Below, in pieces: positions 9,071 through 62,200 of a stretch of 64,000 bases of DNA. Within the stretch, counting starts at the first letter, position 1. Each line of letters starts with the position of its first letter. The position numbers were made by a program, and so were the translations under genes. The notes under the pieces were generated by a model. The model was not told where the DNA came from. It did not search any database and saw nothing but the letters and a program-made list of their open reading frames with translations. This DNA comes from Thermoplasmatota archaeon (GTDB lineage Archaea > Thermoplasmatota > Penumbrarchaeia > Penumbrarchaeales > Penumbrarchaeaceae), in contig JALOTP010000001.1 in NCBI GenBank assembly GCA_025457865.1, forward strand, positions 96,457-160,456, given 5' to 3'.

Positions 9071-9099
9071 ATTATATATGTTTGAACATATGTTTAAAC
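9071..9099 (+). promoter_or_regulatory. TATA-like box (ATTATATAT) plus imperfect palindrome GTTTGAACATATGTTTAAAC directly upstream of the antitoxin start
   Basis: The AT-rich box at 9071-9079 lies about 25 nt before the ATG at 9104/9110, implying a near-leaderless transcript. The 20-bp inverted repeat at 9080-9099 sits between the box and the start codon, as expected for an autoregulatory operator. Confidence 0.45.
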
Positions 9100-9103
9100 T
9101 GAG

Positions 9104-10288
9104 ATGGAGATGGCAACTAAGACGATAACCGTGACCCAGGATGCATATGACGCGATGGCCCGGCAGAAGAGGGAGGGTGAGAGCTTCTCCGAGCTCTTCC
9201 TGAGATTGACCGGACGGGAATGCAACATCTCGGATTTCCTTGGACTATGGGAGATGGACGATGAGGACCAGAAGGTCTTTGATCAGATCAGGAGGTCCTG
9301 GTTGAATAATACCATTTATTATAACAATCGTCCACTTAATTACGGGACCTTAAATTCATTGTTATGGGATACAGATGGTGATAATATGTCCGACGGTTGG
9401 GAGATAAAATACGGATTCGATCCGTGCGATAACTCGAGCCCTAACAAGAATAATGATGGGGACCAGGACGGGATCAGTGATTACAATGAATATTGTCTTG
9501 AAGATACACCTGGAGCTTTCGTTGAGAACAATGTGACCATAAAGTACCATAACATGTCAAAATGGGGAGCGCAGCCAGACAGAAAAGATATCTTTGTAGA
9601 AGTTGATTGGATGGTCCGTGAATGGTTCGATGATTATTCATTTACTAAAAAAGAATTGAAATTAAACCAAGAAATGAAGGATAAATTGATATTATTATTT
9701 TTCAAACAAATAGAAAAGAACTATTCTTTCACTCTACATATTGATGATGGTTATATGGGTGGAGGTACTCAACTTGATTATCAACCAAGAATATATATAA
9801 ATAAAAAGAATGGAGGTTTTAATGATTTGCAGGATTTTTATTTAAATAATTTTTATTATATATTGAGACAGGGCGTTTTTCATTATTGTGTTATTGGAAA
9901 TGAAGTTTTTTCAAATGGGGAAAGCGAAGATACCGATTGGGTGCCTGGAGTTTCAACAAAAGGACATTTTATTATTGGAGGTGAGTTTCATACTCAAGAA
10001 AAAATGGCTAATGTATTTTTACATGAATTGGGACATACTTTTGGATTACTAAGAGAGGGGGGCAGCAATTTTACAGGGATTGACAATACTGATACTACAA
10101 GACCATGGAAATGTGAGTTTTGGAAATATTTAGAGTATAAAAGTGTTATGAATTATAATTTTATATACGACTTTTTGTTTAATTATTCTGATGGGTCAAA
10201 TGGAAATGATGATTTTGACGATTGGGACTGGATTAATAATAATCTATCATTTTCTCTTTATTTAAAAGGCCTGGGGGTGTGGGATTGA
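9104..10288 (+). CDS. Chimeric ORF: VapB-family (PF02697-like) antitoxin N-terminus (aa 1-~65, GC-rich) read through into an AT-rich metzincin-like zinc metallopeptidase (copy A)
   Basis: aa 1-66, MEMATKTITVTQDAYDAMARQKREGESFSELFLRL...FLGLWEMDDEDQKVFDQIRRSW, resembles archaeal putative antitoxins. GC content collapses at nt ~9300 inside the ORF. Downstream come a TSP3-like DTDGDNMSDGWE motif, then KWGAQPDRKDIFVEVDWMV, HELGHTFGLL (10022-10036) and an SVMNY Met-turn. The protease part may use its own internal start (e.g. the ATG at 9386). Confidence 0.6.
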   Translation: MEMATKTITVTQDAYDAMARQKREGESFSELFLRLTGRECNISDFLGLWEMDDEDQKVFDQIRRSWLNNTIYYNNRPLNYGTLNSLLWDTDGDNMSDGWEIKYGFDPCDNSSPNKNNDGDQDGISDYNEYCLEDTPGAFVENNVTIKYHNMSKWGAQPDRKDIFVEVDWMVREWFDDYSFTKKELKLNQEMKDKLILLFFKQIEKNYSFTLHIDDGYMGGGTQLDYQPRIYINKKNGGFNDLQDFYLNNFYYILRQGVFHYCVIGNEVFSNGESEDTDWVPGVSTKGHFIIGGEFHTQEKMANVFLHELGHTFGLLREGGSNFTGIDNTDTTRPWKCEFWKYLEYKSVMNYNFIYDFLFNYSDGSNGNDDFDDWDWINNNLSFSLYLKGLGVWD

Positions 10289-10860
10289 AATATCAAAAAA
10301 TTATTTCTTTAATAATAGTATTATTTTTATCTAGTGGGTGTTTTGATTTTTTTTCTGAGGAAGATTCCTATTTCAGGTTTAAATTTGAATTTAAAATTAA
10401 TGTATATTCTAATAATGACACGTATATGATTTATATACCTATACCAAAAAATGGTTCAAATAAGGGTGTTAATCCAATAATTAAGTATTTTATAAAAGAA
10501 GGAGATATTGAAACGAATATTTCGTTGGTAAAAATAAATGATCGTTTTGAATATGCACTTCAGATAGTTGGGAATGGAAATGCTCGTATTTGGTTAGATA
10601 ACAAAATGATATACAGTTTAGAATATTATTTAGGATACATGTGGTTATACTCAGATGCTAAACATTTATTTTTCTATTTTAATTCTTCGATGGAAGGTTG
10701 TGCGATTGATTATTATTTACAACAAGAAATATTTCACGATGATGGAGCCACTCACAAAATTTTTTATCGAACAGATTCAGATCATTCAGATACTGTTTTA
10801 GTTAATGGATGGAATAATGTAATTGTTTATCAATACGAATCACCAGTAGTAATGAGGTAA
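10279..10860 (+). CDS. Predicted lipoprotein (copy A partner)
   Basis: Signal peptide with lipobox (IISLIIVLFLSSGC). AT-rich and Y/N/K-rich. The start overlaps the stop of the upstream protease ORF by a few nt (GTG/TTG start). Confidence 0.55.
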   Translation: MGLKYQKIISLIIVLFLSSGCFDFFSEEDSYFRFKFEFKINVYSNNDTYMIYIPIPKNGSNKGVNPIIKYFIKEGDIETNISLVKINDRFEYALQIVGNGNARIWLDNKMIYSLEYYLGYMWLYSDAKHLFFYFNSSMEGCAIDYYLQQEIFHDDGATHKIFYRTDSDHSDTVLVNGWNNVIVYQYESPVVMR

Positions 10861-10864
10861 AATT

Positions 10865-11677
10865 ATGATTAAGACATGTTACAAAAATAATATTATGTGC
10901 CGAGTTCATGACATGTGCAGGTGGGGAGCACAGCCTGATAGGCAGGATATTTTCGTCGAGGTTGACTGGATGGTAGAGGAAAAGTTCCAATACAATTGGG
11001 AGATTGACAGATATGAAACTGAAATATCATATAAAATGTCAGATAAAGTAAAAGAGAAGGTAATAATAGCTTTTTATAAAGCATGCAAATACGGGAATCA
11101 TATCACATTGCACATAGATGACGGATGCATGGGTGGGGGAGGAGATAAAATTGATTATATCTATGAAATTTATGACACATGGAAAAACGATGATGGTGAC
11201 ATGTATGATTTTAAAGGTCATGATGCAAATAATAATTTCAAATTGGATAATAGTGAAGAGGTAACTAATCCATTAACAGGAAAACCATATTTTAGTAGTT
11301 CAAGATCAAAGATATTTCACTATTGTTTGATGGCTTATTATCTTAAAGGCTCTCATAAAACCCTTGGTTCATCAGATGGACCAAATGTTAAAGCCGGGTA
11401 TGATGTAGGGGATCTAGGAGGAGATGATATAACAATCTTTATGGGGGCTCTTGGAAGTGCAAACGATGCTGAAGTGGCTGATGTTTTTATGCATGAGTTA
11501 GGACATAATTTAGGATTGATTGATTATTATTCAAATCCTGATAAAGCAAAGACTATGTATGGTTGGGGACATAATAAATATTTGAATTATAATAATAATT
11601 TAAACGATGGATATGCGGGATGGCAAGAAATGGACTTAACTATATTTACTGATTCGACAAAAGACTTATGGGATTGA
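10865..11677 (+). CDS. Metzincin-like zinc metallopeptidase (copy B; lacks the TSP3-like N-region)
   Basis: Paralogous to copy A (RWGAQPDRQDIFVEVDWMV; TLHIDDGCMGGGG). HELGHNLGLID (11492-11524) fits HExxHxxGxxD, and TMYGW is a Met-turn-like motif. No signal peptide is visible. Confidence 0.6.
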   Translation: MIKTCYKNNIMCRVHDMCRWGAQPDRQDIFVEVDWMVEEKFQYNWEIDRYETEISYKMSDKVKEKVIIAFYKACKYGNHITLHIDDGCMGGGGDKIDYIYEIYDTWKNDDGDMYDFKGHDANNNFKLDNSEEVTNPLTGKPYFSSSRSKIFHYCLMAYYLKGSHKTLGSSDGPNVKAGYDVGDLGGDDITIFMGALGSANDAEVADVFMHELGHNLGLIDYYSNPDKAKTMYGWGHNKYLNYNNNLNDGYAGWQEMDLTIFTDSTKDLWD

Positions 11678-11689
11678 TGGAGGAATACT

Positions 11690-12190
11690 ATGAAAAATAT
11701 TATAATCTATATATTATCAATAACTTTCATATTAATTATTGGATGCCTTGACAATAATGAACCCAGTCAAGAAATGTATAATGGAAATATTGATTTATCT
11801 ATTCATATTTCAAATAATGATCTTAACCAAATTTTAGTAAATATCTTATTAGAAAATATTGATTCTCACAAAATAACGATTCAACCATTATACTTATGGG
11901 GAAATCTTCAAATTAATATTTCAGATGCAAATGGATTGAAGGTTTTTAGTGCGGATAAACCTAAGTTATTTTCTTTGACAAATGATGATTTGATAACGAT
12001 AAAAGAGAATCAAAATATCACGTTGACAATTAATTTATATGAGCATTTCAATTTTAATCGTAATTTCACACAACCATATTCAATATATGCACAATATAAA
12101 ACTTCAGATATTGGTGGAGGAAATGAAAAGCTTAATTCATGGAAAGGTGAACTAATTTCGAATATAATCGAATTCAAGATAACTTCATAA
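11690..12190 (+). CDS. Predicted lipoprotein (copy B partner)
   Basis: MKNIIIYILSITFILIIGC gives a signal peptide plus lipobox. A GGAGGAATACTATG RBS-like sequence precedes the start. 166 aa, N/I-rich. Confidence 0.55.
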   Translation: MKNIIIYILSITFILIIGCLDNNEPSQEMYNGNIDLSIHISNNDLNQILVNILLENIDSHKITIQPLYLWGNLQINISDANGLKVFSADKPKLFSLTNDDLITIKENQNITLTINLYEHFNFNRNFTQPYSIYAQYKTSDIGGGNEKLNSWKGELISNIIEFKITS

Positions 12191-12346
12191 AGTCGGAGTC
12201 ACAGATTACAGCCAAATTAATTGGCAATATACTGGACACGTCTTAGGCATAATTTGTGATGTTTAAAAATCAAGTAGCATAATTGATGTGCAAGAAATAT
12301 CATCAATCAGGAACGATGAATTGTTCCAGGTACGAGTGAATCTCAT

Positions 12347-12628
12347 CTACATCAACAGGAAGCTTAGAACAATCAACAATGATGATCTCATATCCTGGCA
12401 TCCTATACTGCTCGATCTTCCGGTTCCGGTACTTCTTGGAAACATGGAACTCAATTTCATACAAGGTCCTTGTTGTCTTGTCGCAAAGATCGACATATCC
12501 GTTTGGGACCTCCATTCGGATGATACATCATGTTTCATATCTCTTAGAATCCAGAACAGGATCGCTTTGGCAACGAAATGTTTGTAGGTTTCGTTCGATA
12601 ACTTCGTAAGATGGTTCGGCCCACTCAC
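12347..12628 (-). CDS. Hypothetical small protein (93 aa)
   Basis: GTG start preceded by a strong AGGAGG 7 nt upstream, in intermediate-GC sequence between the island and the AcnX gene. Overlapping ORFs (12303..12515 minus, 12288..12587 plus) cannot be excluded. No homology recognised. Confidence 0.3.
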   Translation of the reverse strand: MSGPNHLTKLSNETYKHFVAKAILFWILRDMKHDVSSEWRSQTDMSIFATRQQGPCMKLSSMFPRSTGTGRSSSIGCQDMRSSLLIVLSFLLM

Positions 12629-12731
12629 TGATTTGTTCCTCCTGAGGTCCTATCTTCGGAGGATTACGAGAAAGATATGACAGAGAGAAGAGACAACCAT
12701 ATCAAGAATTCTACCAACGATGACCCCGTCC

Positions 12732-45657: not shown

Positions 45658-48600
45658 ATGTTCAAGAGAGATCTACTGGTGGCAATAGCTATTCTTACTT
45701 TTTTGAGCGTACCATCTGTAACGTGTTACCCCCATTCATCTGGACCTGTAGGAACCCCTTGGACCATGGACGGTGACCTGGAGATGGACATGAACATCTC
45801 GGAAGCGTCTATGGCATCGTTCATTGGCGAAGGCGCTTGGGATTCTTCGGGTTTTTCCGTGTCAAGGGCAGGGGATGTGAACGGCGATGGGTTGGATGAT
45901 ATCATCATAGGTGCCCAACAGAATGGGGAGGGTGGCTCTGGTGCGGGTCAGACATACCTCTTCTTCGGAAGGGCGAGCGGTTGGGAGATGGATACGAACC
46001 TCAGCATGGCCGATGCCTCGTTCATTGGGGAGGATGATGGTGATGGTTCCGGCCATTGTGTGGTGGATGCCGGTGATGTGAACGATGATGGTTATGATGA
46101 TATCCTCATAGGTGCGAACCAGGATGAGGACGGCGGGAACGGGGCAGGTCAGACATACCTCGTTCTCGGTAGGGCGTCAGGATGGACAATGGACACCGAC
46201 CTGAGCTTGGCCGATGCCTCGTTCATAGGGGAGGATGATGGTGACAATTCCGGTCATACGGTGGATGGGGCGGGGGATGTGAACGGTGACGGGTTCGATG
46301 ACATACTCATAGGGGCCTATGGGGACGAAGATGGAGGCGGTGGAAACGCAGGTCAGACCTATTTGATATTGGGTAAAGCCTCGGGCTGGGCCATGGATAC
46401 TGACCTCAGCCAGTCCGATGCATCGTTCTGGGGTGAGGAAGGTGGGGATTGGTCGGCCTATTCGGTTGCGGGCGCCGGAGACGTGAACGGGGATGGTCTC
46501 GATGACATCCTTGCCGGAGCCTCCGACAATGATGCAGGAGGGAATGCCGCTGGCCAAGCCTATCTGATACTGGGAAAGGCCTCAGGTTGGGCGATGGATA
46601 CAGACCTATCAGCTTCCAGTGCATCCTTCTGGGGCGAGGAAAGCGTTGACTATTCAGGTATCACGGTATCAGGACCGGGAGATGTGAACGGTGATGGCTA
46701 TGACGATATCTTCATCGGGGGTTCGAACAATGATGAGGGGGGGGACAATTTCGGCCAATATTATCTGGTCCTGGGGAAGGCCTCTGGGTGGGCGATGGAC
46801 ACCGACCTGAGCCTCTCGGACGCTTCGTTCCGAGGAGAGTACAGTGGGAGTTGGACGGGGAGGCAGGTTTCCGGGGCAGGAGATGTGAACGGTGATGGGT
46901 TCTATGATATAATGGTAGCGGATTCCTATGCAAATGAGGGTAATTCCGGAGCAGGTCAGACCTATCTGATATATGGGAAGGCCTCAGGATGGTCGATGGA
47001 TCAAGACCTGAACGAGTCCGACGTCTCCTTCATAGGGGAGGACAACGGGGACCAATCTGGGTATTCCGCTCATGGTGCCGGAGACGTCAATGGGGATGGC
47101 AACGACGACATCCTTGTCGGGGCTCCCGGAGATGAGGAAGGCGGCCCGCAATCAGGTCAGACCTACCTAATCTCCATCGAAGGTTTCTCCGAACCATTGG
47201 CGGTCTATGACGTCACGGTCAGGAATGGAATGGGGGAATTGGTCCAGGCCGCCGATATAGGAGAATCAGTCATCATAGAGATTAAAGGTCTGGACAGGAA
47301 CGAATCACATATGGACAAGGCTAGGGTCAACGTTTCCTTCAGCTCCGGAAAACCCGCACAGATCACCGTTGGCCTGATAGAGACCGGTCTGGACACAGGA
47401 CTGTACCGCGGCATCTACAGGGTGAATGTGAACGCTGAATATTTCCAGAGTATCCATTTTTCGGCATATATAGCCCCATCTGAATACTACAATGTGAAGG
47501 TGGATTATCCCTATAGGCCCGATAATGTGGTATCACTGGGTGTCTATTCGAGCCTGACCAGTTCGACCTTGTTAGATAAGTTGGACCTGGGCCAGACAGT
47601 CTATATCAAATGCTCTGGAGAGGATTCGAACAAGTTGACCATAGATAAAGCGTTCGTTAACCTGACCTCGGACAAGAACACGACCTACCATTCCATGGTC
47701 GTCATGATGGAAACGGGGGCATCCACAGGAGTGTTCACCTCATCGTTCACCGTCCCTAGTACGATGGGTTATTTCGAGAACATAACAATGTCATCGGCAG
47801 AGACACCCTCTGTCACTGCGATGTTCATGGTCCATACGCCTGTCCAGCTAAGAGCTACAGGTCCGTTCCGAAAAGCCCAGGAAGATTTGGAGTACAGGGT
47901 GGGTTTCTACAATTTCGGTTATAGTACGGTGACCTGGACCCTGACCACTGATGCATATTGGCTGGAATGGGACGAGGTGGGACATGTGCTCGATGGAACA
48001 CCGAGGAACATCGACGTTGGGGCTGACATCTGGAAGGTCATGGTCCGAATATCGGACGATCAAAGCCGCAGTCATGAGCTGTTGTACAACATCACTGTGA
48101 AGAATACGGACCCGTCGATACTCACAGAGCCTATGACCGAATGCATAGAGTACGATCCGTACCACCTTGACCTGGATTCCAGCGATGATGAGGGCGGTGA
48201 GACCACCTGGTATCTCAACACTGATGCAGAGTTCCTGAGCATTGAGAAGGATACAGGTATCTTGAAAGGAAACCCGATAGGTGTGGATATCGGGGAATAT
48301 CTAGTCAATGTCCAGGTAAGGGACGGGAAAGGAGGGACCGGTAATCTGATCTATGACCTGACGGTGGTCGGGAGGAACGATGGACCCCAGATCACAACCA
48401 CCGACATCAAGCAGGTCGAACAGGACACACCCTTCCGAAGGGATTACGAGGTCTTCGACCCTGATGAGGGGGATTCCCATCACTGGACGCTTAGGACCGA
48501 TGCGGATTGGTTGAGCATGGAGAACGATACTGGAGTTTTGTTCGGGACACCAAATGGTTATGACGTTGGAGACTGCTTCATTAATATCACTGTCACTGAC

Positions 48601-49929
48601 GAGGGAGGGTTGAGCGACTATCGTCAGCTAACGTTCAAGGTCATCGATCTAAAGGATAGACCTGTGTTCGATTCATTGCCCGAGGATGTCGAACTGCTGC
48701 ATGGGAGACGATACAACTTCGATATGAACGCATCCGATCCGGATAAGGATACTATATTGGTATACTCTATCTCAACCGAACCCATCAGCGATATGGCAAT
48801 AGACTCAAGGACCGGAGAGGTCAATTGGATCGCATCCTTCAGGTCCATGCCAGTAACCGGGGATGGAATGGTGGTTCGGGTGAAGGTGTCCGATGGTGAA
48901 CTGTTCTCGGTCCATGAGTTCATGGTCAATGTCATACCGACAAGATCCCCCATCGCTCAGCTCTTATCCCCCGTCATAGGGACAAGGACCCTATCAGGAT
49001 ATTCATTGCTCGAATGGTCGGGGTCCGATCCCGAGAACGAACCTTTGACCTATACGCTCTACTTGGCGGACAGCAATGCCTACCTATCAGCCAGGAGGGT
49101 TGAGGATATCAAGGCTGAAAGGATCCAAGATGACCATATCAACCTGACCGGACTGATCCAGGGCAAGACCTATTACTGGTCGGTAGTCCCGGACGACGGA
49201 TGCACTCAGGGGACCTGCTCAAACGGTATCTTCAACTTCAGGGTCAACAGCAGGCCCGCTCTGATAGATGTGAAGGACCAGACTATTGAGGTCGATATGA
49301 TGTTCAGGTCCAAGCTATCAGGTAGTGATGACGACCAGGATGATGCCGTAAGGTACGAACTTGTCGATGGACCGTCCGGATTGACCGTAAAGGCCGAGAC
49401 CGGGATGATCGAATGGACCCCGGGGTCAGATCAGGTCGGGACCCATACGGTCACTATACGAGCGACAGATGGGTATGAGTGGACGAAGATAGACTTCGAA
49501 ATTAAAGTTGTGGAGAAATCTGGACCGAACCTTGGATTGATATTGGGCGCGTTAATAGTAATTCTGATAATTGTCATCATAGCTCTGGTCCTTTTCATCG
49601 TTGTTTTCAGGAAGCGACCCTCTGAGGAGGAAGTGGTGGTCGAGGAGGAAGATGAGGAATCGAAGAGGATACGCGAAGAATTGGTGCAGCTTCGTAGCGA
49701 GAAGGATTGGGAGTCGGCCCATTCAAAGCCGTCCGATCAGGTTGTGGCTTCGGTGCCCTCCTCTGTTACAGAGGCCCATGCCAATGATAGGACATTGAGG
49801 AAGATGAGCTATGAGGACCTCTATGGACAGCCCGCACCTGACAAGAGCGAGGAACTTACTACAGAGGAGCTGAAGGGAGAGCTCAAGAAGCTGACCGAAG
49901 AGCTGAAGGGCTCAATGGTCGAGGAATGA
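45658..49929 (+). CDS. Giant surface protein: signal peptide, ~8 FG-GAP repeats, Ig/cadherin-like domains, TM anchor and conserved coiled-coil cytoplasmic tail (paralogue 1)
   Basis: 1423 aa. Repeated GAGDVNGDG(F/Y/L)DDI(L/I)IGA modules, a TM helix LGLILGALIVILIIVIIALVLFIVVF, and a tail containing SVPSSVTEAHANDRTLRKMSYEDLYGQPAPDKSEELTTEELKGELKKL. Confidence 0.8.
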   Translation: MFKRDLLVAIAILTFLSVPSVTCYPHSSGPVGTPWTMDGDLEMDMNISEASMASFIGEGAWDSSGFSVSRAGDVNGDGLDDIIIGAQQNGEGGSGAGQTYLFFGRASGWEMDTNLSMADASFIGEDDGDGSGHCVVDAGDVNDDGYDDILIGANQDEDGGNGAGQTYLVLGRASGWTMDTDLSLADASFIGEDDGDNSGHTVDGAGDVNGDGFDDILIGAYGDEDGGGGNAGQTYLILGKASGWAMDTDLSQSDASFWGEEGGDWSAYSVAGAGDVNGDGLDDILAGASDNDAGGNAAGQAYLILGKASGWAMDTDLSASSASFWGEESVDYSGITVSGPGDVNGDGYDDIFIGGSNNDEGGDNFGQYYLVLGKASGWAMDTDLSLSDASFRGEYSGSWTGRQVSGAGDVNGDGFYDIMVADSYANEGNSGAGQTYLIYGKASGWSMDQDLNESDVSFIGEDNGDQSGYSAHGAGDVNGDGNDDILVGAPGDEEGGPQSGQTYLISIEGFSEPLAVYDVTVRNGMGELVQAADIGESVIIEIKGLDRNESHMDKARVNVSFSSGKPAQITVGLIETGLDTGLYRGIYRVNVNAEYFQSIHFSAYIAPSEYYNVKVDYPYRPDNVVSLGVYSSLTSSTLLDKLDLGQTVYIKCSGEDSNKLTIDKAFVNLTSDKNTTYHSMVVMMETGASTGVFTSSFTVPSTMGYFENITMSSAETPSVTAMFMVHTPVQLRATGPFRKAQEDLEYRVGFYNFGYSTVTWTLTTDAYWLEWDEVGHVLDGTPRNIDVGADIWKVMVRISDDQSRSHELLYNITVKNTDPSILTEPMTECIEYDPYHLDLDSSDDEGGETTWYLNTDAEFLSIEKDTGILKGNPIGVDIGEYLVNVQVRDGKGGTGNLIYDLTVVGRNDGPQITTTDIKQVEQDTPFRRDYEVFDPDEGDSHHWTLRTDADWLSMENDTGVLFGTPNGYDVGDCFINITVTDEGGLSDYRQLTFKVIDLKDRPVFDSLPEDVELLHGRRYNFDMNASDPDKDTILVYSISTEPISDMAIDSRTGEVNWIASFRSMPVTGDGMVVRVKVSDGELFSVHEFMVNVIPTRSPIAQLLSPVIGTRTLSGYSLLEWSGSDPENEPLTYTLYLADSNAYLSARRVEDIKAERIQDDHINLTGLIQGKTYYWSVVPDDGCTQGTCSNGIFNFRVNSRPALIDVKDQTIEVDMMFRSKLSGSDDDQDDAVRYELVDGPSGLTVKAETGMIEWTPGSDQVGTHTVTIRATDGYEWTKIDFEIKVVEKSGPNLGLILGALIVILIIVIIALVLFIVVFRKRPSEEEVVVEEEDEESKRIREELVQLRSEKDWESAHSKPSDQVVASVPSSVTEAHANDRTLRKMSYEDLYGQPAPDKSEELTTEELKGELKKLTEELKGSMVEE
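45850..47170 (+). repeat. Internal tandem FG-GAP coding repeats (~200-nt period) within giant gene 1
   Basis: Recurrent nucleotide blocks encoding GKASGWAMDTDLS...ASF.GE...GDVNGDG (e.g. near 46375, 46575, 46780). Confidence 0.55.
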
Positions 49930-50066: not shown

Positions 50067-53000
50067 ATGAGTTCGAAAGTGAACATGGTGCTAGTTGCCA
50101 GCGTGGTCCTTTTAATGGCCCTTTTCCCCACCGTCATCTCGGACGGCAGCGGACCAGGACCAGTTCCGGGCCCCAGGGGTGACCTTTCCAAGAACATGGA
50201 CCTCAAAGACGCTGCTTTCGCATCTTTCCTTGGAGAGAGGCCCAACAGCAGGTCCGGGACCTCGGTCGCAGGATTGGGTGATGTTAACGGTGACGGTATC
50301 GATGATATCATCATAGGCGCCAGTGACGACAATGAGTGGGGTATGCTATCTGGACAGGCTTACCTTTTCCTGGGAGGCCCTTTCGGATTGAAGAGAGGGT
50401 TGAGCCTATCAGAGGCAGATGCGTCCTTCTACGGCAATCAAGATGGATTGGCCGGGTTTTCGGTTGCCGGGGCAGGGGATGTCAACAATGACGGCTTGAA
50501 CGATATCCTAATCGGTTCTTACAACGACCCGGACGGAGCGTTGCAGGCAGGGAAGGCGTATCTCATCTTCGGTAAGAGGACAGGCTGGGAGATGGACACA
50601 TCCCTATCCAGCGCCAGTGCGAGCTTCATGGGGACCATGCCCCACATGCAGTGCGGTTTCTCCGTTGCGGGGGCAGGGGACGTAAATAAGGACGGGTTCG
50701 ATGATATCCTCATCGGAAGCAAGCTTGGCCGCGTCTATCTCTTCTTCGGAAAAGCGTCCGGTTGGACACAGAACAGGCAGCTCCCCACAGCCGATGTCAG
50801 TTTCACCGAGGAAGGACCTGTAGAAGGGATAGGGGATTCAGTGGCCGGAGCGGGCGATGTCAATGGGGATGGTTATGAAGATATTTTGCTGGGTGCCCCC
50901 CTTAACGATGAGAACGCTCCCGATTCAGGTCAGACCTATCTCATCCTTGGCAGGTCCGGACCATGGCTCCCGGACGTCCTGCTGACCAATGCCGACGCAT
51001 CGTTCCTGGGCGAGAGCGAGAACGACCGCTCCGGCATCAGCATCGCCGGGGGAGGCGACGTGGACGGCGACGGTTATGACGATATCGTCATAGGTGCCGA
51101 CGGCCACAGCCAGGTCGCGATGCATGGAGGGAAGTCCTACATCATATTCGGAAGGTCTAGCGGATGGTCCATGGACACAAGGCTCTCCGGTCCCGTTGTG
51201 TCGTTCATGGGAGATGACGAAGGGGACCAGATAGGGAACCCCCTCTCATCTGCCGGGGACCTCAACATGGACGGCCTGGACGATATATTGATATCCTCTC
51301 CCTTCAACGGGGAGAACGGGGTCCAATCCGGAAAGGTCCATCTTATCTTCGGTCGGAGGACCGGTTGGGGCGTAAACGTATCTATCTCAAAGGCCAATGC
51401 ATCGTTCATGGGGGAGACCGGAGGGGACAATGCGGGCTCATCCTTAGCGGCCGCTGGGGATGTCGATGGGGACGGATTGAACGAGATCGTACTGGGGGCC
51501 AAGCACCGTTCCGAGGGGGAGAACCTCGCCGGAAAGACATACCTTGTCAAGGGACCTGCGGGGACCGAACCATTGTCGGTCCAATCCATAAGCGTGTTCT
51601 CCGGAGGCTTCGGACTTAAAGCGGGCAGGTTCGACAAGGGTGACAGGGCATTCATAGAGATGAAGGGGGTCGATGGGAACCTGACGCATACTGACCATGT
51701 CAGGGTCATAGTGGGCTTCAGCAGGACCTATGCGGGGACCATCGATATCTTTCTCAAGGAGACGGGACCGAACACAGGTGTTTACAGGGGCTCCTTCCAT
51801 GTCCCGACAACGACCGAATATTTCGAGACCATAACGTTCTATGCGGCCAAGGACCCGTTGAAATATGCCAGGATAGTGGTGGACTATCCGTACAGACCCT
51901 CCAGCGTCACTGCGATAGGGGTCTACTCGAGCCCGACAGGTCTAACACCCCTTGACAAGCTCGACTACGGCCAGACGGTCTATTTCAGAAGCGTCGGGGT
52001 CGATTCGAACACGTCTCGGGTCGATAAGGCGTTCGTGAACATGAGTTCCGACAAGAACGCAAGCTACCTACCAATGCTGGTCCTGACCGAGACCGGTGCA
52101 TCGACAGGGACCTTCGTGGTGCAGTTCAAGGTCCCATCGACCATGCAGTGGTTCGAGAACATCACCCTCACCTCGGTCGAGACGGCGGCGAAGAAAGCGA
52201 AGTTCATGGTCCATACCCCCGTCCAGGTCAGGGCCGCTGGACCTTACAAGGACGCAGTGGAGGATTCTGAGTACAGGGTGTCATTCTATAACTTCGGATA
52301 CAATCCGGTCATATGGACCGCTACTAAGAACGCTTACTGGCTCAACTGGAACGATAAGAAGCTGGAGCTCTACGGTACCCCCCGCAACAACGACGTGGGG
52401 GACAGCGATTGGGAGGTCCTTGTGACCATAGAGGACGAGTTCGAGCACAGGAGCAGTCTCGAGTACGTCCTAAGGGTCATCAATACCCCACCCGAGATAC
52501 TCACACCACCGGTGACCGAATGGTACGAGAACAGGCCATATCTGGTGGATTTCAACTGCGATGACGACGGTCAGGGTTCCATGACCTGGACCTTGAGCAC
52601 CATTGCACCGTTCCTCAAGATCGACAAGACCTCCGGTGTCCTGAGCGGCACCCCTATTGTGGGGGATTCCGGGTCCTATGTTGTGACGGTACAGGTCCAC
52701 GACGGTCATGGCGGCATCGATGAGGTCCGTTACAACCTGACCATAGAGGATGAGAACGACCCGCCCCAGATAACGACCACGGACATCAAACAGGTGGAGC
52801 AGGACACCCCTTTCAGACGGGACTACGATGTCTATGACCCTGACCAGAACGACATCCATAACTGGACGCTAAGGACCGATGCGGAATGGTTGGGGATCGA
52901 GAACGGTACAGGCGTACTTTTCGGTACACCCGACGGGTACGACGTCGGCGACTGGATTGTGAACATCACCGTAACCGACCAGGGAGGTTTGAGCGACAGT

Positions 53001-54353
53001 CAGGAGTTCACGCTGAAGGTCCTGGATATAGAGGACGCACCGAAGTTCATAGATGTACCGAGGAACAAGGAGCTCCCCCACGGGACAGAACTCTACTTCG
53101 ATGTGAACGCAACCGACTATGACAAAGACGACAAGGTGGCCTACAGCGTCATGACCGAGCCTTCGAGCAATATGCTGATAGACCCAACGACCGGCGATCT
53201 GAGATGGACCGCGAGCTATCGCTCGATGCCGCAGAACGAGGTGGGTATGAAGGTCACATTGAGAGCTACCGACGGGCAGCTCACCACTTCTTACGAATTC
53301 TTCGTGAAGGTGACCCCGACGCTCTCCCCATACAGCCAGCTCGTGTCACCGGCCAAAGGGGCCAGGACAGCTCAGGATAAGACCATACTGCATTGGGGGG
53401 GGACCGACCCTGAGGACGACCCGCTGATCTACATACTCTACCTTGCGGACACGGAGGCCTATATAACATCGAAGAGCCCCGATAGTATGGTCTCATCCAC
53501 CATCACGGGAACGACCTATGAGTTAACAAGGCTCACGCCTGGCAAGACCTATTACTGGACCGTCATACCTGACGATACTTGCACCTACGGTACCTGTACG
53601 AACGGTGTGTTCAGCTTCAGGGTGAACAACAGGCCTGTCCTTGAGACCGTCAAGGACCAGTTCACTGCTGAAGGGGATGAGTTCCTCTACAAGCTGATGG
53701 GCAGCGATGGCGACCAGGACGACAAGTTGGTCTATGCCCTGGAGAAGGGTCCGTCGGGTATGACCCTGAGGGATTCCACGGGTATGCTCGTCTGGACACC
53801 AAAGAGCGGACAGGCCGGTACCCATACGGTGAAGGTCAATGTCACCGACGGATATGAGATAATGATGGTCCAGTTCAGGATCGTGGTTTCGGAGAAGGAA
53901 GGACCCAACATTGGCCTTCTGATAGGTATCGCGCTTGGGGTCATAGTTCTCATCATCGCCGCACTCCTCCTCTTTTTCCTCGTGATCAAAAAGAAGGGAG
54001 AGGAGGAAGGAGGGGAGGTCAAGGAGGAAGAGGACGAGGAGACCAAGCAGCTGAGGGAGGAGCTCGAGCAGAAGGAGAGAGAGACGGGGTGGACGGAAGG
54101 GGGAGCGAAGCCTCCCGGAGAACAGCGGACCATCACCTCTGTCCCATCATCCATCGCCGAGGCACATGCCCAGGACAAGACATTGAAGAAGATGGGCTAC
54201 GAGGAGCTCTACGGACAGCCTGCACCCGATAAGGACGAGGAGCTGACCACGGAGGAACTGAAGGACGAGCTCGAGAAGCTCGCAGAGCAGCTCCGGAACG
54301 CAGGGACCGAGGACGCATCCATAGACCTCGGTGAGGAAGAGAACGGGACTTGA
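50067..54353 (+). CDS. Giant surface protein paralogue 2 (FG-GAP repeats, Ig/cadherin-like domains, TM anchor, conserved cytoplasmic tail)
   Basis: 1428 aa, collinear with paralogue 1. Long near-identical blocks (NDPPQITTTDIKQVEQDTPFRRDYDVYDPD..., GKTYYWTVIPDDTCTYGTCTNGVFSFRVNNRP) and a matching tail (SVPSSIAEAHAQDKTLKKMGYEELYGQPAPDKDEELTTEELKDELEKL). Confidence 0.8.
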   Translation: MSSKVNMVLVASVVLLMALFPTVISDGSGPGPVPGPRGDLSKNMDLKDAAFASFLGERPNSRSGTSVAGLGDVNGDGIDDIIIGASDDNEWGMLSGQAYLFLGGPFGLKRGLSLSEADASFYGNQDGLAGFSVAGAGDVNNDGLNDILIGSYNDPDGALQAGKAYLIFGKRTGWEMDTSLSSASASFMGTMPHMQCGFSVAGAGDVNKDGFDDILIGSKLGRVYLFFGKASGWTQNRQLPTADVSFTEEGPVEGIGDSVAGAGDVNGDGYEDILLGAPLNDENAPDSGQTYLILGRSGPWLPDVLLTNADASFLGESENDRSGISIAGGGDVDGDGYDDIVIGADGHSQVAMHGGKSYIIFGRSSGWSMDTRLSGPVVSFMGDDEGDQIGNPLSSAGDLNMDGLDDILISSPFNGENGVQSGKVHLIFGRRTGWGVNVSISKANASFMGETGGDNAGSSLAAAGDVDGDGLNEIVLGAKHRSEGENLAGKTYLVKGPAGTEPLSVQSISVFSGGFGLKAGRFDKGDRAFIEMKGVDGNLTHTDHVRVIVGFSRTYAGTIDIFLKETGPNTGVYRGSFHVPTTTEYFETITFYAAKDPLKYARIVVDYPYRPSSVTAIGVYSSPTGLTPLDKLDYGQTVYFRSVGVDSNTSRVDKAFVNMSSDKNASYLPMLVLTETGASTGTFVVQFKVPSTMQWFENITLTSVETAAKKAKFMVHTPVQVRAAGPYKDAVEDSEYRVSFYNFGYNPVIWTATKNAYWLNWNDKKLELYGTPRNNDVGDSDWEVLVTIEDEFEHRSSLEYVLRVINTPPEILTPPVTEWYENRPYLVDFNCDDDGQGSMTWTLSTIAPFLKIDKTSGVLSGTPIVGDSGSYVVTVQVHDGHGGIDEVRYNLTIEDENDPPQITTTDIKQVEQDTPFRRDYDVYDPDQNDIHNWTLRTDAEWLGIENGTGVLFGTPDGYDVGDWIVNITVTDQGGLSDSQEFTLKVLDIEDAPKFIDVPRNKELPHGTELYFDVNATDYDKDDKVAYSVMTEPSSNMLIDPTTGDLRWTASYRSMPQNEVGMKVTLRATDGQLTTSYEFFVKVTPTLSPYSQLVSPAKGARTAQDKTILHWGGTDPEDDPLIYILYLADTEAYITSKSPDSMVSSTITGTTYELTRLTPGKTYYWTVIPDDTCTYGTCTNGVFSFRVNNRPVLETVKDQFTAEGDEFLYKLMGSDGDQDDKLVYALEKGPSGMTLRDSTGMLVWTPKSGQAGTHTVKVNVTDGYEIMMVQFRIVVSEKEGPNIGLLIGIALGVIVLIIAALLLFFLVIKKKGEEEGGEVKEEEDEETKQLREELEQKERETGWTEGGAKPPGEQRTITSVPSSIAEAHAQDKTLKKMGYEELYGQPAPDKDEELTTEELKDELEKLAEQLRNAGTEDASIDLGEEENGT

Positions 54354-59043: not shown

Positions 59044-59273
59044 CCGTGATCATCCAGTAACTTAGAGATAGAACAGGAGAAGGCTCTTCAATCTTTCCTA
59101 TGCATAACGTTCGGTCCATCACTCTGGCCCACAACGGATAATAATTAATCGAATGAAGGTCATTCCCTATATCGTGGGGGAACTAGTTCTGGAGCGGCCC
59201 ATCCTTGGCCCCTCTCCATGTAGGTTCCTGGTTTAGGGCATGATATGCCCTTCTATGACGTGAGGTGGTCAGT

Positions 59274-62200
59274 ATGGGTCGAACAAAGATAGTACTGATT
59301 TCGGTGATCTGTTTTGTACTTGTGGTGGGACCGATCTTAGACCCGGTCATCACTGGCTGGGTCAAGGGGCTGGGAGATGGCATGGACCTGGACACCAGGG
59401 CAGCCGTAATACCAGGGCCTTACAGGAACCTCAAGAAACTGGTGGACGATCTCCTTGCCGTTACAACGGATTGGACGGATTCGGATGAGGATGGCCTACC
59501 CGATGCGGTGGAAAGGATAATCGGGACCGAGTACGAAAATGCCGATAGCGACTACGACACATTGAACGATTCATATGAGGTGTCGCTGAACATCGACCCG
59601 TTGAAGGCCGACTCCAACGATGACGGATTGGTGGACCCTCGCGAGGTCTTGGATGTCCCATTGGACGTCGATGGAGATGGCGCACCCAACGGATGGGATC
59701 GGGACAATGACAATGACGGCTTCGAAGATGGTACGGACAAGTCACCCAGTGCCTGTACCGATCTTATAGATACCTTCCATCTGGACCTGAACACTACGGG
59801 AAAGCCCCTTTACATTTCCATGCAGCTCAGGCCCAAGAACCCGGAAAAGATGAAATTGATGCTCGGGACACTGGATTGGCCTTACGATGATAAGGGAGTG
59901 ATGAAGGACCTGGACAATTCGACCGGGGACGTCCTGGTATCGCCGATATTGAAATTGAAGGGGAATGTTTTACCAGCCCAGGATGAAGTGGTCGAATACG
60001 GCATGAAGGTCGGGGAAGATGGGGTAAAAGCACCGCTTTCCGCCGAGTGGGAATACGGACGCGTCGTTGGCTTAGGCGCCAAGATATTCTACCCGGGATC
60101 GGCAGAACCCATGAATCTGAGCCTGGATATGAGCATAGAATGGGTGGTGACGGGTATCACCGATACCGAGGTAAGGACGATCAAGGCCAATGATCAGAAA
60201 TACCTGACATCGATGGGCTCAGGATCGGTGAAGGCCAACTCCACCGAGAGGACCGAGCCCCAGCGGTTCGGTTGGGAGAGGATCGGCGAAGACAAGGTAT
60301 CTCTCAGGACAGCTGGCGGATATTATATCGGGGTGGACATGGACGGAAAGGTAAGATCCGGATTCGAAACGCGCGATGATCAATGTATATTCACGATAAA
60401 AAAAGAGACCGGCTACCAATATCTCACCGATGAAAACGGAAATTACTTAGTCCTGCTGGATGACGGCTCGATCGGAACGACAAAGGACAGGTCGGAAAAG
60501 GCAAGATTCGTCATTGAGAATGATGGTGTGCGGAAGAACAGCATCACACTCATGACCTATACGGATGAGTTCGTGATAGCGAGTCTAACGATTTCGGAGA
60601 ATTACGGGACCGATATCGGCCTGGTCTATTCCGAGGACGCGGAGGAGATGATCGCAGCGAACATGGTCCTTACAAGCAGTTACATGAGGAACTATTCTCT
60701 CAAATTGGATGAGATTCCCGAATTCCTCCAGGCGAGGAACATCACGATCCGCAATTCAACAGGAAGTTACCAGCATTCCGACCTGGCCGTCAAGGCTGCC
60801 CTGGGAACGATGGTTATTGAGGCTTTCGAGACCCTACCTGAGGGAGAGTTGTGTTCCATCACCACCTTAATGGAGGACAGTGCATCCATCGCCGACCTGA
60901 CGGGTATATCTTCCTTGAACGGCAGCTCTTTTTCTGTGGATATGTCGGATGTTCCAATTATCACGACAAGGCTCATGAAATCGACATGGTACGAACCCCC
61001 GTCGAAGGAACCGTTGGGACCCAGTGAATTCCTTTTACGGATCGATCCTTTGCTGGACCCGCTCAAGGATGAGGACAAGAAGTCGATGATCGGTATGGTC
61101 CTGTTCTGGAACGTGGGCGAGATACGGGTCATGAAGATAGGTGATGATGTAAAGGGTAACGGGACCGATGAATGGATGGAGGAAGCCTCGAGATGGAGCG
61201 GGGCAATAGTAGGAAGCATAAGTTTCGTCATCAATTTCGTGAAGGATTTCGTATTGCCGGTCCTTGAGTTCCTTACGTTCATGTATAAGCAATTCACGAC
61301 GAGCAGCCAGTTCCTGATCGCGATCATAAAAGGCACTGGCGCATCTGTACTGTACATCCTTAAATCCTTCAAGGACTGGGGCGCCTGGGGTTCGTCTGTC
61401 GCTAAGGTCCTTTTCGGGGTGGGGATCGTGATAAGCATCATCGGTTACGTCATAGATGTGGCGCTCCTCATATTCAATCTTGTGGCAATGTACGGCGCTG
61501 CTGCTTGCGACCCGTTCCAGATCACATTGACCACGATCTATGCTGTCATGGCTTTTTCATGGATAACAGCCCTGTTCGGAGTAGGCCTCTTCTTCTCGAT
61601 CCTAACCTTCATACTGAGCCTTCAAGCGATACCGGTAGGTGGCCAGATCGCAGGTTTCATAATCGGAGTGGTAGTGGCCATCGTCGGTTTGCTCTATGCG
61701 CTCGAGGAGCTGGTAGTCTCACTAATAACAGGTAAGAGCGGATCCGAATGGGTTATATCCTGGATCATAGGACTGATCTCAGGTGTGTGGGTGCTTACGA
61801 GCGTGGACATGGACCTGTTCAGTTCGGAGATATCGATAGATGATGTGACGGGTAACGGTCTCGATTCAAATGACAGGATCGAATTCAAGAACATCTGGGA
61901 CACTACTGTTACAAGGGATGATAAAGGAACGGCTGACCAGCTCAAGAACTCGTATATCCGACCCGATTACAGGATCTCGGTCCCCATGAACACTTCGGCC
62001 GGTCGGGTGTACTTCGAAACCGGCAATTACTCCAAAGTGATATCAAGCCAGGTCACGGACAATGAGAAGAAAGTACGATACGAATCGGGTGCATGGATCA
62101 AACCCGGCACCGGGATGGTGAACTATCCTGTGGTCGTTGACCTATTGATGAGCTACTCAAGGTACTATCAGGAATACCTTTTCTGGGGACTCATCCCGTT

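Follow-up and report, generated by a model that had tools for sequence, protein, structure and literature searches.

Polymorphic toxin systems are defined by an exported repeat protein with a variable C-terminal enzymatic domain, a cognate gene downstream, and truncated cassettes that carry a recombination handle (PMC3482391). Systems of this class have been predicted, not characterised experimentally, in archaea (Makarova et al. 2019, as cited in PMC8416519), where DNases and RNases are said to be the commonest toxins (PMC8416519). Here, we analyzed a 64,000-nt stretch of a Thermoplasmatota genome (contig JALOTP010000001.1, positions 96,457 to 160,456; referred to as the window), in which AT-rich DNA carries two genes for metzincin-like peptidase domains, cassettes A and B, each followed by a lipoprotein gene, lipoA and lipoB. 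We propose, with moderate confidence, that these are orphan cassettes of a polymorphic-toxin-like system whose hosts are mainly Thermoplasmatota, in which a secreted metzincin would be the effector and a surface lipoprotein, acting as its inhibitor, would provide immunity.

The peptidase domain of cassette A (9554..10288, + strand) forms the C-terminal part of a 394-aa open reading frame (ORF) of the ORF list, ORF A (9104-10288, +). It is entered through a segment conserved with other loci, the handle (9303..9613, +), which comprises thrombospondin type 3 (TSP3)-like Ca-binding repeats and a pre-domain region up to the VEVDWM codons. Cassette B (10865..11677, +; 270 aa) consists of a short handle (WGAQPDRQDIFVEVDWM) and a metzincin-fold peptidase domain, assigned from its motifs and a fold model. 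The initial annotation had described the two copies as paralogues, and BLASTP bears this out (32% identity over 215 aa, E=1e-24); the cassette start it gave, 9386, lies inside ORF A. Every motif it had quoted was located. In ORF A these are DIFVEVDWM (9587-9613), LHIDDGYMGGG (9734-9766), HELGHTFGLLR (10022-10054) and SVMNY (10142-10156), and in ORF B DIFVEVDWM (10946-10972), LHIDDGCMGGG (11108-11140), HELGHNLGLID (11492-11524) and KTMYGW (11549-11566), so that both copies have HExxHxxG followed by a Met-turn. The TSP3-like Ca-binding motif that it had noticed in copy A alone is DTDGDNMSDGWE at 9368-9403, the last repeat and the only one that this copy keeps (TSP3_bac E=0.064, sub-threshold); copy B has only ~27 residues before DIFVEVDWM. 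Exact protein matches to the window carry the organism name Candidatus Thermoplasmatota, and the match of cassette B, P0001, is labelled 'metallopeptidase family protein'.

Each peptidase gene is followed by a gene for a lipobox protein. LipoA (10279-10860, +; 193 aa, lipobox LSSGC), the partner of cassette A, starts within the peptidase gene, overlapping its stop by 10 nt, and lipoB (11690-12190, +; 166 aa, lipobox LIIGC), the partner of cassette B, starts 12 nt past the stop of B. The two show no detectable similarity to each other, in agreement with the initial annotation. Pfam and NCBIfam scans of lipoA and lipoB returned no family match, which speaks against their being common substrate-binding proteins, an outcome that the annotation had set against its own proposal; a Pfam scan of four partners from other loci was likewise empty, and a search of 5.8 billion proteins with lipoA and lipoB found only the queries themselves. 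LipoA nevertheless falls into a loosely conserved family of partners, recognisable by Y.YIPIP.N and NGWQ.I, whose members lie downstream of peptidases in L007, L042, L052, L068, L096 and other loci. A hidden Markov model (HMM) of nine members of this family yielded eight further matches in the fetched loci, all directly after a family peptidase ORF; the loci had been chosen for containing a peptidase, and the result speaks to position and orientation, not to exclusivity.

We then assigned the fold of the peptidase domain. The curated peptidase families of Pfam and NCBIfam (Reprolysin_3/5, M66, M10, M54 and Astacin) all fall below cut-off for A and B, and the sub-threshold matches to reprolysin, M66, M10, astacin and M54 models are confined to the HExxH helix. 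Among 33 members, at most 13 match any one Pfam family at E<=0.01, a count to which member-level cut-offs were not applied. A profile of 33 homologues searched against the PDB matched snake-venom adamalysins and serralysins from the zinc helix through the Met-turn (E=2.7e-5). The shallower AlphaFold2 model of copy B has a predicted local distance difference test score of 65, and its top Foldseek matches are metzincins. Because the profile match and the model agree on the same families, the domain is assigned to the metzincin fold; the non-peptidase fold that the initial annotation had named as a possible outcome did not appear. The Met-turns SVMNY (A) and KTMYGW (B) align with the family consensus (S/T)CMNY, whose Met is nearly invariant, and the family is further marked by DIFVEVDWM, LHIDDGCMGGG, FHYC and FMHELGHNLGL. 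It is large, with 6732 clusters at E<=1e-3 and 3841 at E<=1e-10 in a library of 1.84 billion proteins, and its hosts include Thermoplasmatota, Asgard archaea and many bacteria (Kitasatospora, Streptomyces, Chloroflexota, Planctomycetota).

The third zinc ligand sets two groups of members apart. Across loci L012-L171, the third-ligand His is present in 90/93 members of internal type, which are mostly bacterial, versus 20/87 of C-terminal type, which are mostly archaeal; in the remaining 67 of the latter it is replaced by W, E, S, R, D and other residues. In the window, the position is Asp in B (HELGHNLGLID) and Arg in A (HELGHTFGLLR). The initial annotation was right about the Arg of copy A, and its suggestion that this Arg may mark degeneracy is not specific to the copy, since His is the exception in the C-terminal type. 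The H, E and H of HExxH and the Met of the Met-turn are invariant or nearly so across very divergent members, and an acidic residue often stands 1-2 positions past the replaced ligand (LLREG, FRSD). The loss of His would reflect either a relocated ligand or many pseudo-enzymes.

The domain also occurs in far longer proteins. One form, of 460-505 or ~830 aa, starts with a signal or anchor, continues through an N-terminal domain and TSP3-like repeats, and has the metzincin at its very C-terminal end. The other has long TSP3 stalks, with lengths of 900-1900 aa among the fetched loci and as much as 5967 aa in the library, where the domain again lies at the extreme C-terminus. Among C-terminal-type ORFs that are intact and 400 aa or longer, most have a hydrophobic N-terminal segment. 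In L001 (contig Ga0392394_0001851, from the same metagenome), a 1648-aa TSP3-repeat ORF ends in the domain and is followed by a 127-aa lipoprotein; other such parents are the 905-aa protein of L024, which has a hydrophobic N-terminus, the 1895-aa protein of L106 and the 1064- and 1217-aa proteins of L022. By comparison with these relatives, A and B are 5'-truncated orphan modules and not complete genes. The initial annotation had correctly found no signal peptide in either peptidase, and none is predicted for cassette B from any candidate start; the truncation accounts for this, because the missing 5' part of the longer members is where the signal would lie.

Truncated cassettes of this kind recur elsewhere in tandem arrays, and their 5' handles are nearly the same as far as VEVDWM, beyond which the sequences diverge. 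The L096 array has five short cassettes in a row, each paired with a ~200-aa protein of the membrane or lipobox kind; the handles are 97-100% identical in amino acids and the C-terminal domains 46-53%. The L024 array consists of the 905-aa full gene with its lipoprotein, a 218-aa cassette with a lipoprotein, and fragments with a further lipoprotein. In L001, the first gene is a truncated copy, L001a, followed by a 188-aa lipoprotein, and the locus also holds a fragment that repeats the 5' end of its 1648-aa gene. Tandem arrays of truncated cassettes with a similar layout were found in L001, L007, L009, L022, L035, L095 and L118, and array-bearing loci occur in Thermoplasmatota and Asgard archaea. 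These arrays strengthen the analogy to polymorphic toxins that the initial annotation had drawn.

The handle of cassette A is itself shared with L001. Positions 9303-9613 of the window are 86.5% identical in nucleotides to L001 1-311, and the similarity ends at the DWM codons; at the protein level, A and L001a are 90% identical in the handle and 42% after the junction. Copy B matches L001a over a second, 84%-identical patch across the LHIDDGCMGGG region, which points to mosaicism. The L001 contig stops no more than 1 nt from the position that corresponds to the window junction at 9302/9303, and the first 40 nt of the homology are too divergent to have confused the assembler, which suggests that the 5' end of the handle is a real boundary of a segment present in several contexts. 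A more elaborate mosaic is the 469-aa ORF at L007 3002-4411, which opens with the initial ~90 residues of the peptidase domain, as far as a degenerate LHID...DDGCMHG, and then runs through an N-terminal-type domain and TSP3 repeats into a caspase-like H-G...C domain; a 169-aa membrane protein comes next. This ORF shows shuffling with a different type of effector. As a separate observation, the short members P0013 (L009 6001-6651), P0012, P0016, P0017 and P0027 lack the DIFVEVDWM strand and have a basic leader (...VESMRDKGAKR...) fused directly to LHIDDGCMGGG, which could represent a second recombination junction or a frame-shifted variant.

To describe the pairing quantitatively, we took a census of 160 family ORFs from 160 genome or metagenome loci together with loci fetched earlier, counting as a partner any 100-330-aa protein with an N-terminal transmembrane segment or lipobox that starts at most 60 nt downstream. 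A partner directly follows 40/79 C-terminal-type ORFs versus 7/81 of internal type (Fisher p=3e-9). The pairing thus recurs elsewhere, and the lack of co-occurrence that the initial annotation had named as a refuting outcome did not appear. Counting lipobox partners alone, the numbers are 27/79 and 1/81 (Fisher p=6e-9), and 17 of 25 short ORFs (<360 aa, not cut by a contig end) have a partner. The partners co-vary with the peptidase domain and diverge faster than it does: L001a and L022 are 52% identical in their peptidases and 35% in their partners (E=2e-19), the two L035 pairs 57% and 30%, and the L096 pairs 45-49% and 20-26%.

All four cassette genes lie in an AT-rich island, which the initial annotation had overlooked together with the 5' truncation and the chimeric start of ORF A. 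Over ~9300-12300, GC content is 22-43%, compared with ~57-58% for the host genome, and the four ORFs are co-directional in the order A, lipoA, B, lipoB. GC falls stepwise from the host level of ~0.57 (0.575 and 0.562 in the two flanks) to 0.40-0.43 in the handles (A 0.395, B 0.426) and 0.25-0.33 in the C-terminal domains (A 0.299, B 0.329) and partners (lipoA 0.265, lipoB 0.248). This gradient indicates exchange of the domain and its partner as a module. The coding frame over the island has 21 stops and a longest open stretch of 327 codons, compared with 58-115 stops and open runs of at most 205 codons in the other five frames; the ORFs are therefore maintained as coding beyond chance. The left junction with native DNA, at 9302..9303, is marked by the drop in GC and by the start of the homology to L001 at 9303. 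On the right, where the island edge is placed only approximately, a spacer of intermediate GC (0.41; 12191..12731) separates the cassettes from the native AcnX gene. Native genes are contiguous around the island, ABCE1-vapB on the left and AcnX-CetZ on the right. We read the region as an insert of ~3 kb of foreign AT-rich DNA with two orphan cassettes inside.

Flanking direct repeats were not found, nor were tRNA genes in the 64-kb window, and no integrase-like ORF was noted among the ORFs of the island. Carriage by a virus or mobile element was considered and rejected on these grounds and because 2.9 million viral contigs contained no relative; an anti-phage defence system was also rejected, as PADLOC gave no match. 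When the AcnX protein was used to look for an uninterrupted site or other alleles, only the same contig came back, and an exact-DNA metagenome scan with the conserved handle gave no match, the scanned collection evidently being without the source sample. Within the right spacer, two overlapping ORFs at 12303-12628 (- strand; GC ~0.41) read as one small frameshifted gene between the cassettes and AcnX, whose joined product has a D...E.E pattern and a weak, below-cut-off match to Pfam PDDEXK_9 (E=0.05).

The left edge of the insert has a further peculiarity. The first 66 codons of ORF A (9104..9301, +; GC 0.54) are a native vapB-type antitoxin gene: residues 6-57 match Pfam PF02697 (E=3.7e-10, 40.9 bits against a cut-off of 27.9), and positions 1-67 of the 72 in NCBIfam PRK13696 align to the ORF start, with a score below the model cut-off. 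Because the VapB match and the native GC stop where AT-rich DNA continues the reading frame, ORF A is an in-frame chimera with its junction at ~9302/9303, in which vapB supplies the start codon and the island replaces the last ~5 codons of an ancestral gene of ~72 aa. From 9302 up to the AcnX gene, neither strand has a PIN-like ORF that could be a VapC gene. The fusion of cassette A to the resident vapB was probably an insertion accident, since an in-frame join has a chance of one in three and no VapB stands beside other arrays. We had also considered vapB as a regular component or regulator of the arrays and rejected this, as no VapB-like gene adjoins any other fetched array. The vapB start codon (9104) is immediately preceded by a near-perfect palindrome of 20 nt, GTTTGAACATATGTTTAAAC (9080-9099), which could be the operator of an antitoxin-type repressor.

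Elsewhere in the window, a TSP3-repeat ORF at 59257-64000 (+), which runs off the window end, was examined as a candidate 'main' gene and rejected: the full protein of 2167 aa, available in the Joint Genome Institute (JGI) contig L006, lacks a peptidase domain and is anchored by a C-terminal transmembrane segment. This surface protein, which also has a signal peptide, a probable propeller region and TSP3-like repeats, stands outside the cassette system. Two neighbouring ORFs at 45658-49929 (1423 aa) and 50067-54353 (1428 aa), both on the + strand, carry FG-GAP, He_PIG and Big_9 domains in the JGI contig that matches the window, and so look like paralogues with a place at the cell surface.

Set beside the described systems, the family resembles CdiA-CT/CdiI and Rhs-CT/RhsI in its long secreted repeat protein, variable C-terminal effector and adjacent small cognate gene (PMC3482391). 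It also shares with them 5'-truncated cassettes with a conserved junction, variable modules of lower GC, and mosaicism between loci. The junction motifs of CdiA and Rhs are VENN and PxxxxDPxGL, and DIFVEVDWM would play that part here. The Rhs elements of E. coli combine a GC-rich core with AT-rich tips, to which the GC gradient of the island is similar. The differences are as clear. Our hosts are archaeal, a TSP3 stalk takes the place of Rhs/YD or filamentous haemagglutinin repeats, and only a Sec-type signal or anchor is evident in place of a dedicated secretion system. The effector is almost always one metzincin fold, and the presumed immunity proteins are lipoproteins, which implies an extracellular action. 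A multidomain secreted protein with a C-terminal effector is seen in related loci (L001, L024, L106 and the library) and not in the window, and standalone downstream cassettes with a conserved junction and divergent C-terminal domains are likewise found in related loci. The gene directly downstream has the position and the co-variation of a cognate gene, its immunity role being predicted. A diversity of unrelated toxin folds at the C-terminal position was not found, all cassettes being metzincins except the L007 mosaic.

Other described proteins are alike in one respect each. Tox-MPTase1-5, HopH1-like and ALF-MPTase domains are also HExxH zincin-type domains at a toxin C-terminus, and these families are described as small, Wss1-like, RHS-associated and bacterial (PMC3482391). 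Ours, in contrast, is a metzincin of ~200-230 aa with a Met-turn and a linked lipoprotein, and the Tox-MPTase, HopH1 and ALF models were absent from the Pfam matches, which were taken to E<=1 for the two window copies and to E<=0.01 for the set of 33 members. Sequence identity to the solved metzincin families archaemetzincin (M54), adamalysin/ADAM (M12B), pappalysin/ulilysin (M43) and fragilysin is only 12-17%, and the family differs from them in its own motifs DIFVEVDWM, LHIDDGCMGGG and FHYC and in a third ligand that is unconserved in the C-terminal type. In AprA/AprI (Inh), CpaA/CpaB and snapalysin/sermetstatin, a metzincin gene also adjoins a gene for a small exported or membrane-anchored protein, which binds the protease in those systems, and the CpaA and snapalysin structures are among our fold matches. 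Our partners have no sequence similarity to AprI/Inh, CpaB or sermetstatin (Pfam for lipoA, lipoB and four other partners; NCBIfam for lipoA and lipoB), and those systems are single stable operons, not arrays of truncated, fast-diverging cassettes. With the predicted archaeal polymorphic toxins, as far as the 2019 survey is represented in PMC8416519, the family shares the locus logic, in which a long gene comes first and C-terminal homologues follow it with immunity genes alongside, and differs in having a metzincin where nucleases are said to be the commonest toxins. The initial annotation knew of no archaeal system with such a layout: the class itself had already been predicted in archaea, and it is the particular form, a TSP3-stalked C-terminal metzincin with lipoprotein partners across Thermoplasmatota, for which we found no description, the main 2019 archaeal survey being known to us through its citation.

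We then propose a model for how such loci might work. Complete loci would encode a hydrophobic N-terminal signal or anchor, a Ca-binding TSP3 stalk and a terminal metzincin, and the next gene would encode a small lipoprotein that matches this domain specifically. The protease would be exported and attack surface proteins of neighbours that lack the cognate lipoprotein; in target cells without an outer membrane, an import step would be unnecessary. The producer would be protected by its membrane-anchored lipoprotein, which would bind and inhibit the cognate protease on the outer membrane face. Because the lipobox puts the partner on this face, the compartment reached by an exported protease, the partner fits an immunity protein of inhibitor type. 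A parallel exists in type VI secretion systems, where effectors that act in the periplasm have immunity proteins that are periplasmic or lipoproteins. Through homologous recombination, the handle may serve to swap a new protease/lipoprotein pair into the expressed gene, with orphan cassettes serving as the reservoir for switching, and the lipoprotein genes of these cassettes may confer immunity to the toxins of neighbours. It is tempting to speculate, as a distinctly more tentative proposal than that for the window itself, that Thermoplasmatota and some Asgard archaea wage inter-strain warfare in this way, with secreted metzincins acting on a naked cell surface, cognate lipoproteins as immunity and cassette exchange at DIFVEVDWM.

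Several points weigh against the polymorphic-toxin interpretation. Toxicity, secretion and inhibition are what we infer for every member. The C-terminal domains are nearly all of one fold, with the caspase-like domain of the L007 mosaic as the sole exception, and some of them may be inactive, given that only the 20/87 mentioned above keep the third-ligand His. The 64-kb window contains no full-length gene with this domain, only the two truncated ORFs, and no signal peptide is detected at the ORF starts of the longest partnered parents (L001, L022 and L138). Many members in archaea stand alone in ordinary neighbourhoods, without a partner (L002-L005, L013, L016-L019), and could be plain secreted proteases, possibly nutritional. 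In one orthologous group (L038, L055, L059, L063, L066, L070, L159), a signal-bearing peptidase of ~500 aa, 85-91% identical in the domain, is paired at host GC with a ~315-aa lipoprotein that starts with TSP3 repeats and is 44-72% identical; such a pair resembles a stable operon more than it does a mobile cassette. Finally, most metallopeptidase toxin families of bacterial polymorphic toxins are listed without an immunity protein (PMC3482391).

Much of this fits the main rival explanation, in which the family consists of housekeeping secreted proteases, degrading extracellular material for nutrition, and an anchored partner keeps the protease inactive as a dedicated inhibitor or guides its export as a chaperone, in the manner of AprA/AprI-Inh and CpaA/CpaB. 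The window copies would then be decaying fragments of a horizontally acquired operon with no role in conflict. The solo archaeal members of 460-830 aa have a signal or anchor and lie beside ordinary genes, including those of peptidases C15, M24 and C25; the bacterial members are large, multidomain and partnerless; the ~500-aa group with its conserved lipoprotein resembles a stable operon; and sediment Thermoplasmatota are known for extracellular peptidases. This explanation accounts for the pairing and not for the handle-bearing arrays. Left unexplained are arrays of up to five truncated cassettes with handles 97-100% identical and divergent domains and partners, the low-GC, mosaic and patchy nature of the cassettes, and the faster divergence of partners than of enzymes; moreover, the partners match no Pfam or NCBIfam family, inhibitor families included. 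We therefore regard it as unlikely, if deserving of serious attention.

It is less likely still that the domains, as largely pseudo-enzymes, bind the cognate lipoprotein in a non-toxic module for surface recognition or adhesion, of self versus non-self or in cell-cell cohesion, with diversification driven by the specificity of recognition and not by killing. The ligand replacement in 67/87 C-terminal-type members, set against His in 90/93 of internal type, would suit such a role, as would the weak resemblance of the TSP3 stalks to myxobacterial MtsD (cohesion) and CglD (gliding) in sub-threshold NCBIfam matches. Hypervariable surface modules of open function do exist in archaea (VARTIG, PMC8416519). 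Retained catalysis is, however, argued for by the near-invariant HExxH triad, including the catalytic Glu, and Met-turn Met, and by the acidic residue close behind the replaced ligand. An assembly artefact, by which DNA of a low-GC organism was joined into a high-GC contig at the island or the vapB::peptidase junction, is unlikely in the extreme. The sharp GC change at 9302/9303 and the end of the L001 contig of the same metagenome at the homologous point could be read that way, and the JGI contigs (sample 3300037461), which are 100% identical to the window and have the same structure, are not an independent assembly and offer no independent check. Such an artefact would require two precise misjoins, as the insert is internal with contiguous native genes on both sides; the same structure is present in contigs of 138 kb (JGI) and 178 kb (NCBI), and similar low-GC cassettes lie within higher-GC contigs of other samples (L009, L015, L052). 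The orphan-cassette interpretation is thus the one we retain.

What the window itself contributes is modest, as it has silent or orphan copies only, of which the lipoprotein genes are the likeliest functional parts. Beyond it, the analysis defines a large family of metzincins for which curated models offer no coverage. If our interpretation is true, this family would underlie a widespread archaeal conflict system with a protease effector that acts at the cell surface, an extracellularly acting archaeal counterpart of the contact-dependent inhibition (CDI) and Rhs systems built on a large uncurated protease family. It would also provide protease domains and lipoprotein inhibitors whose pairing can be tested, in cognate and non-cognate sets that occur naturally, and a defined recombination junction.

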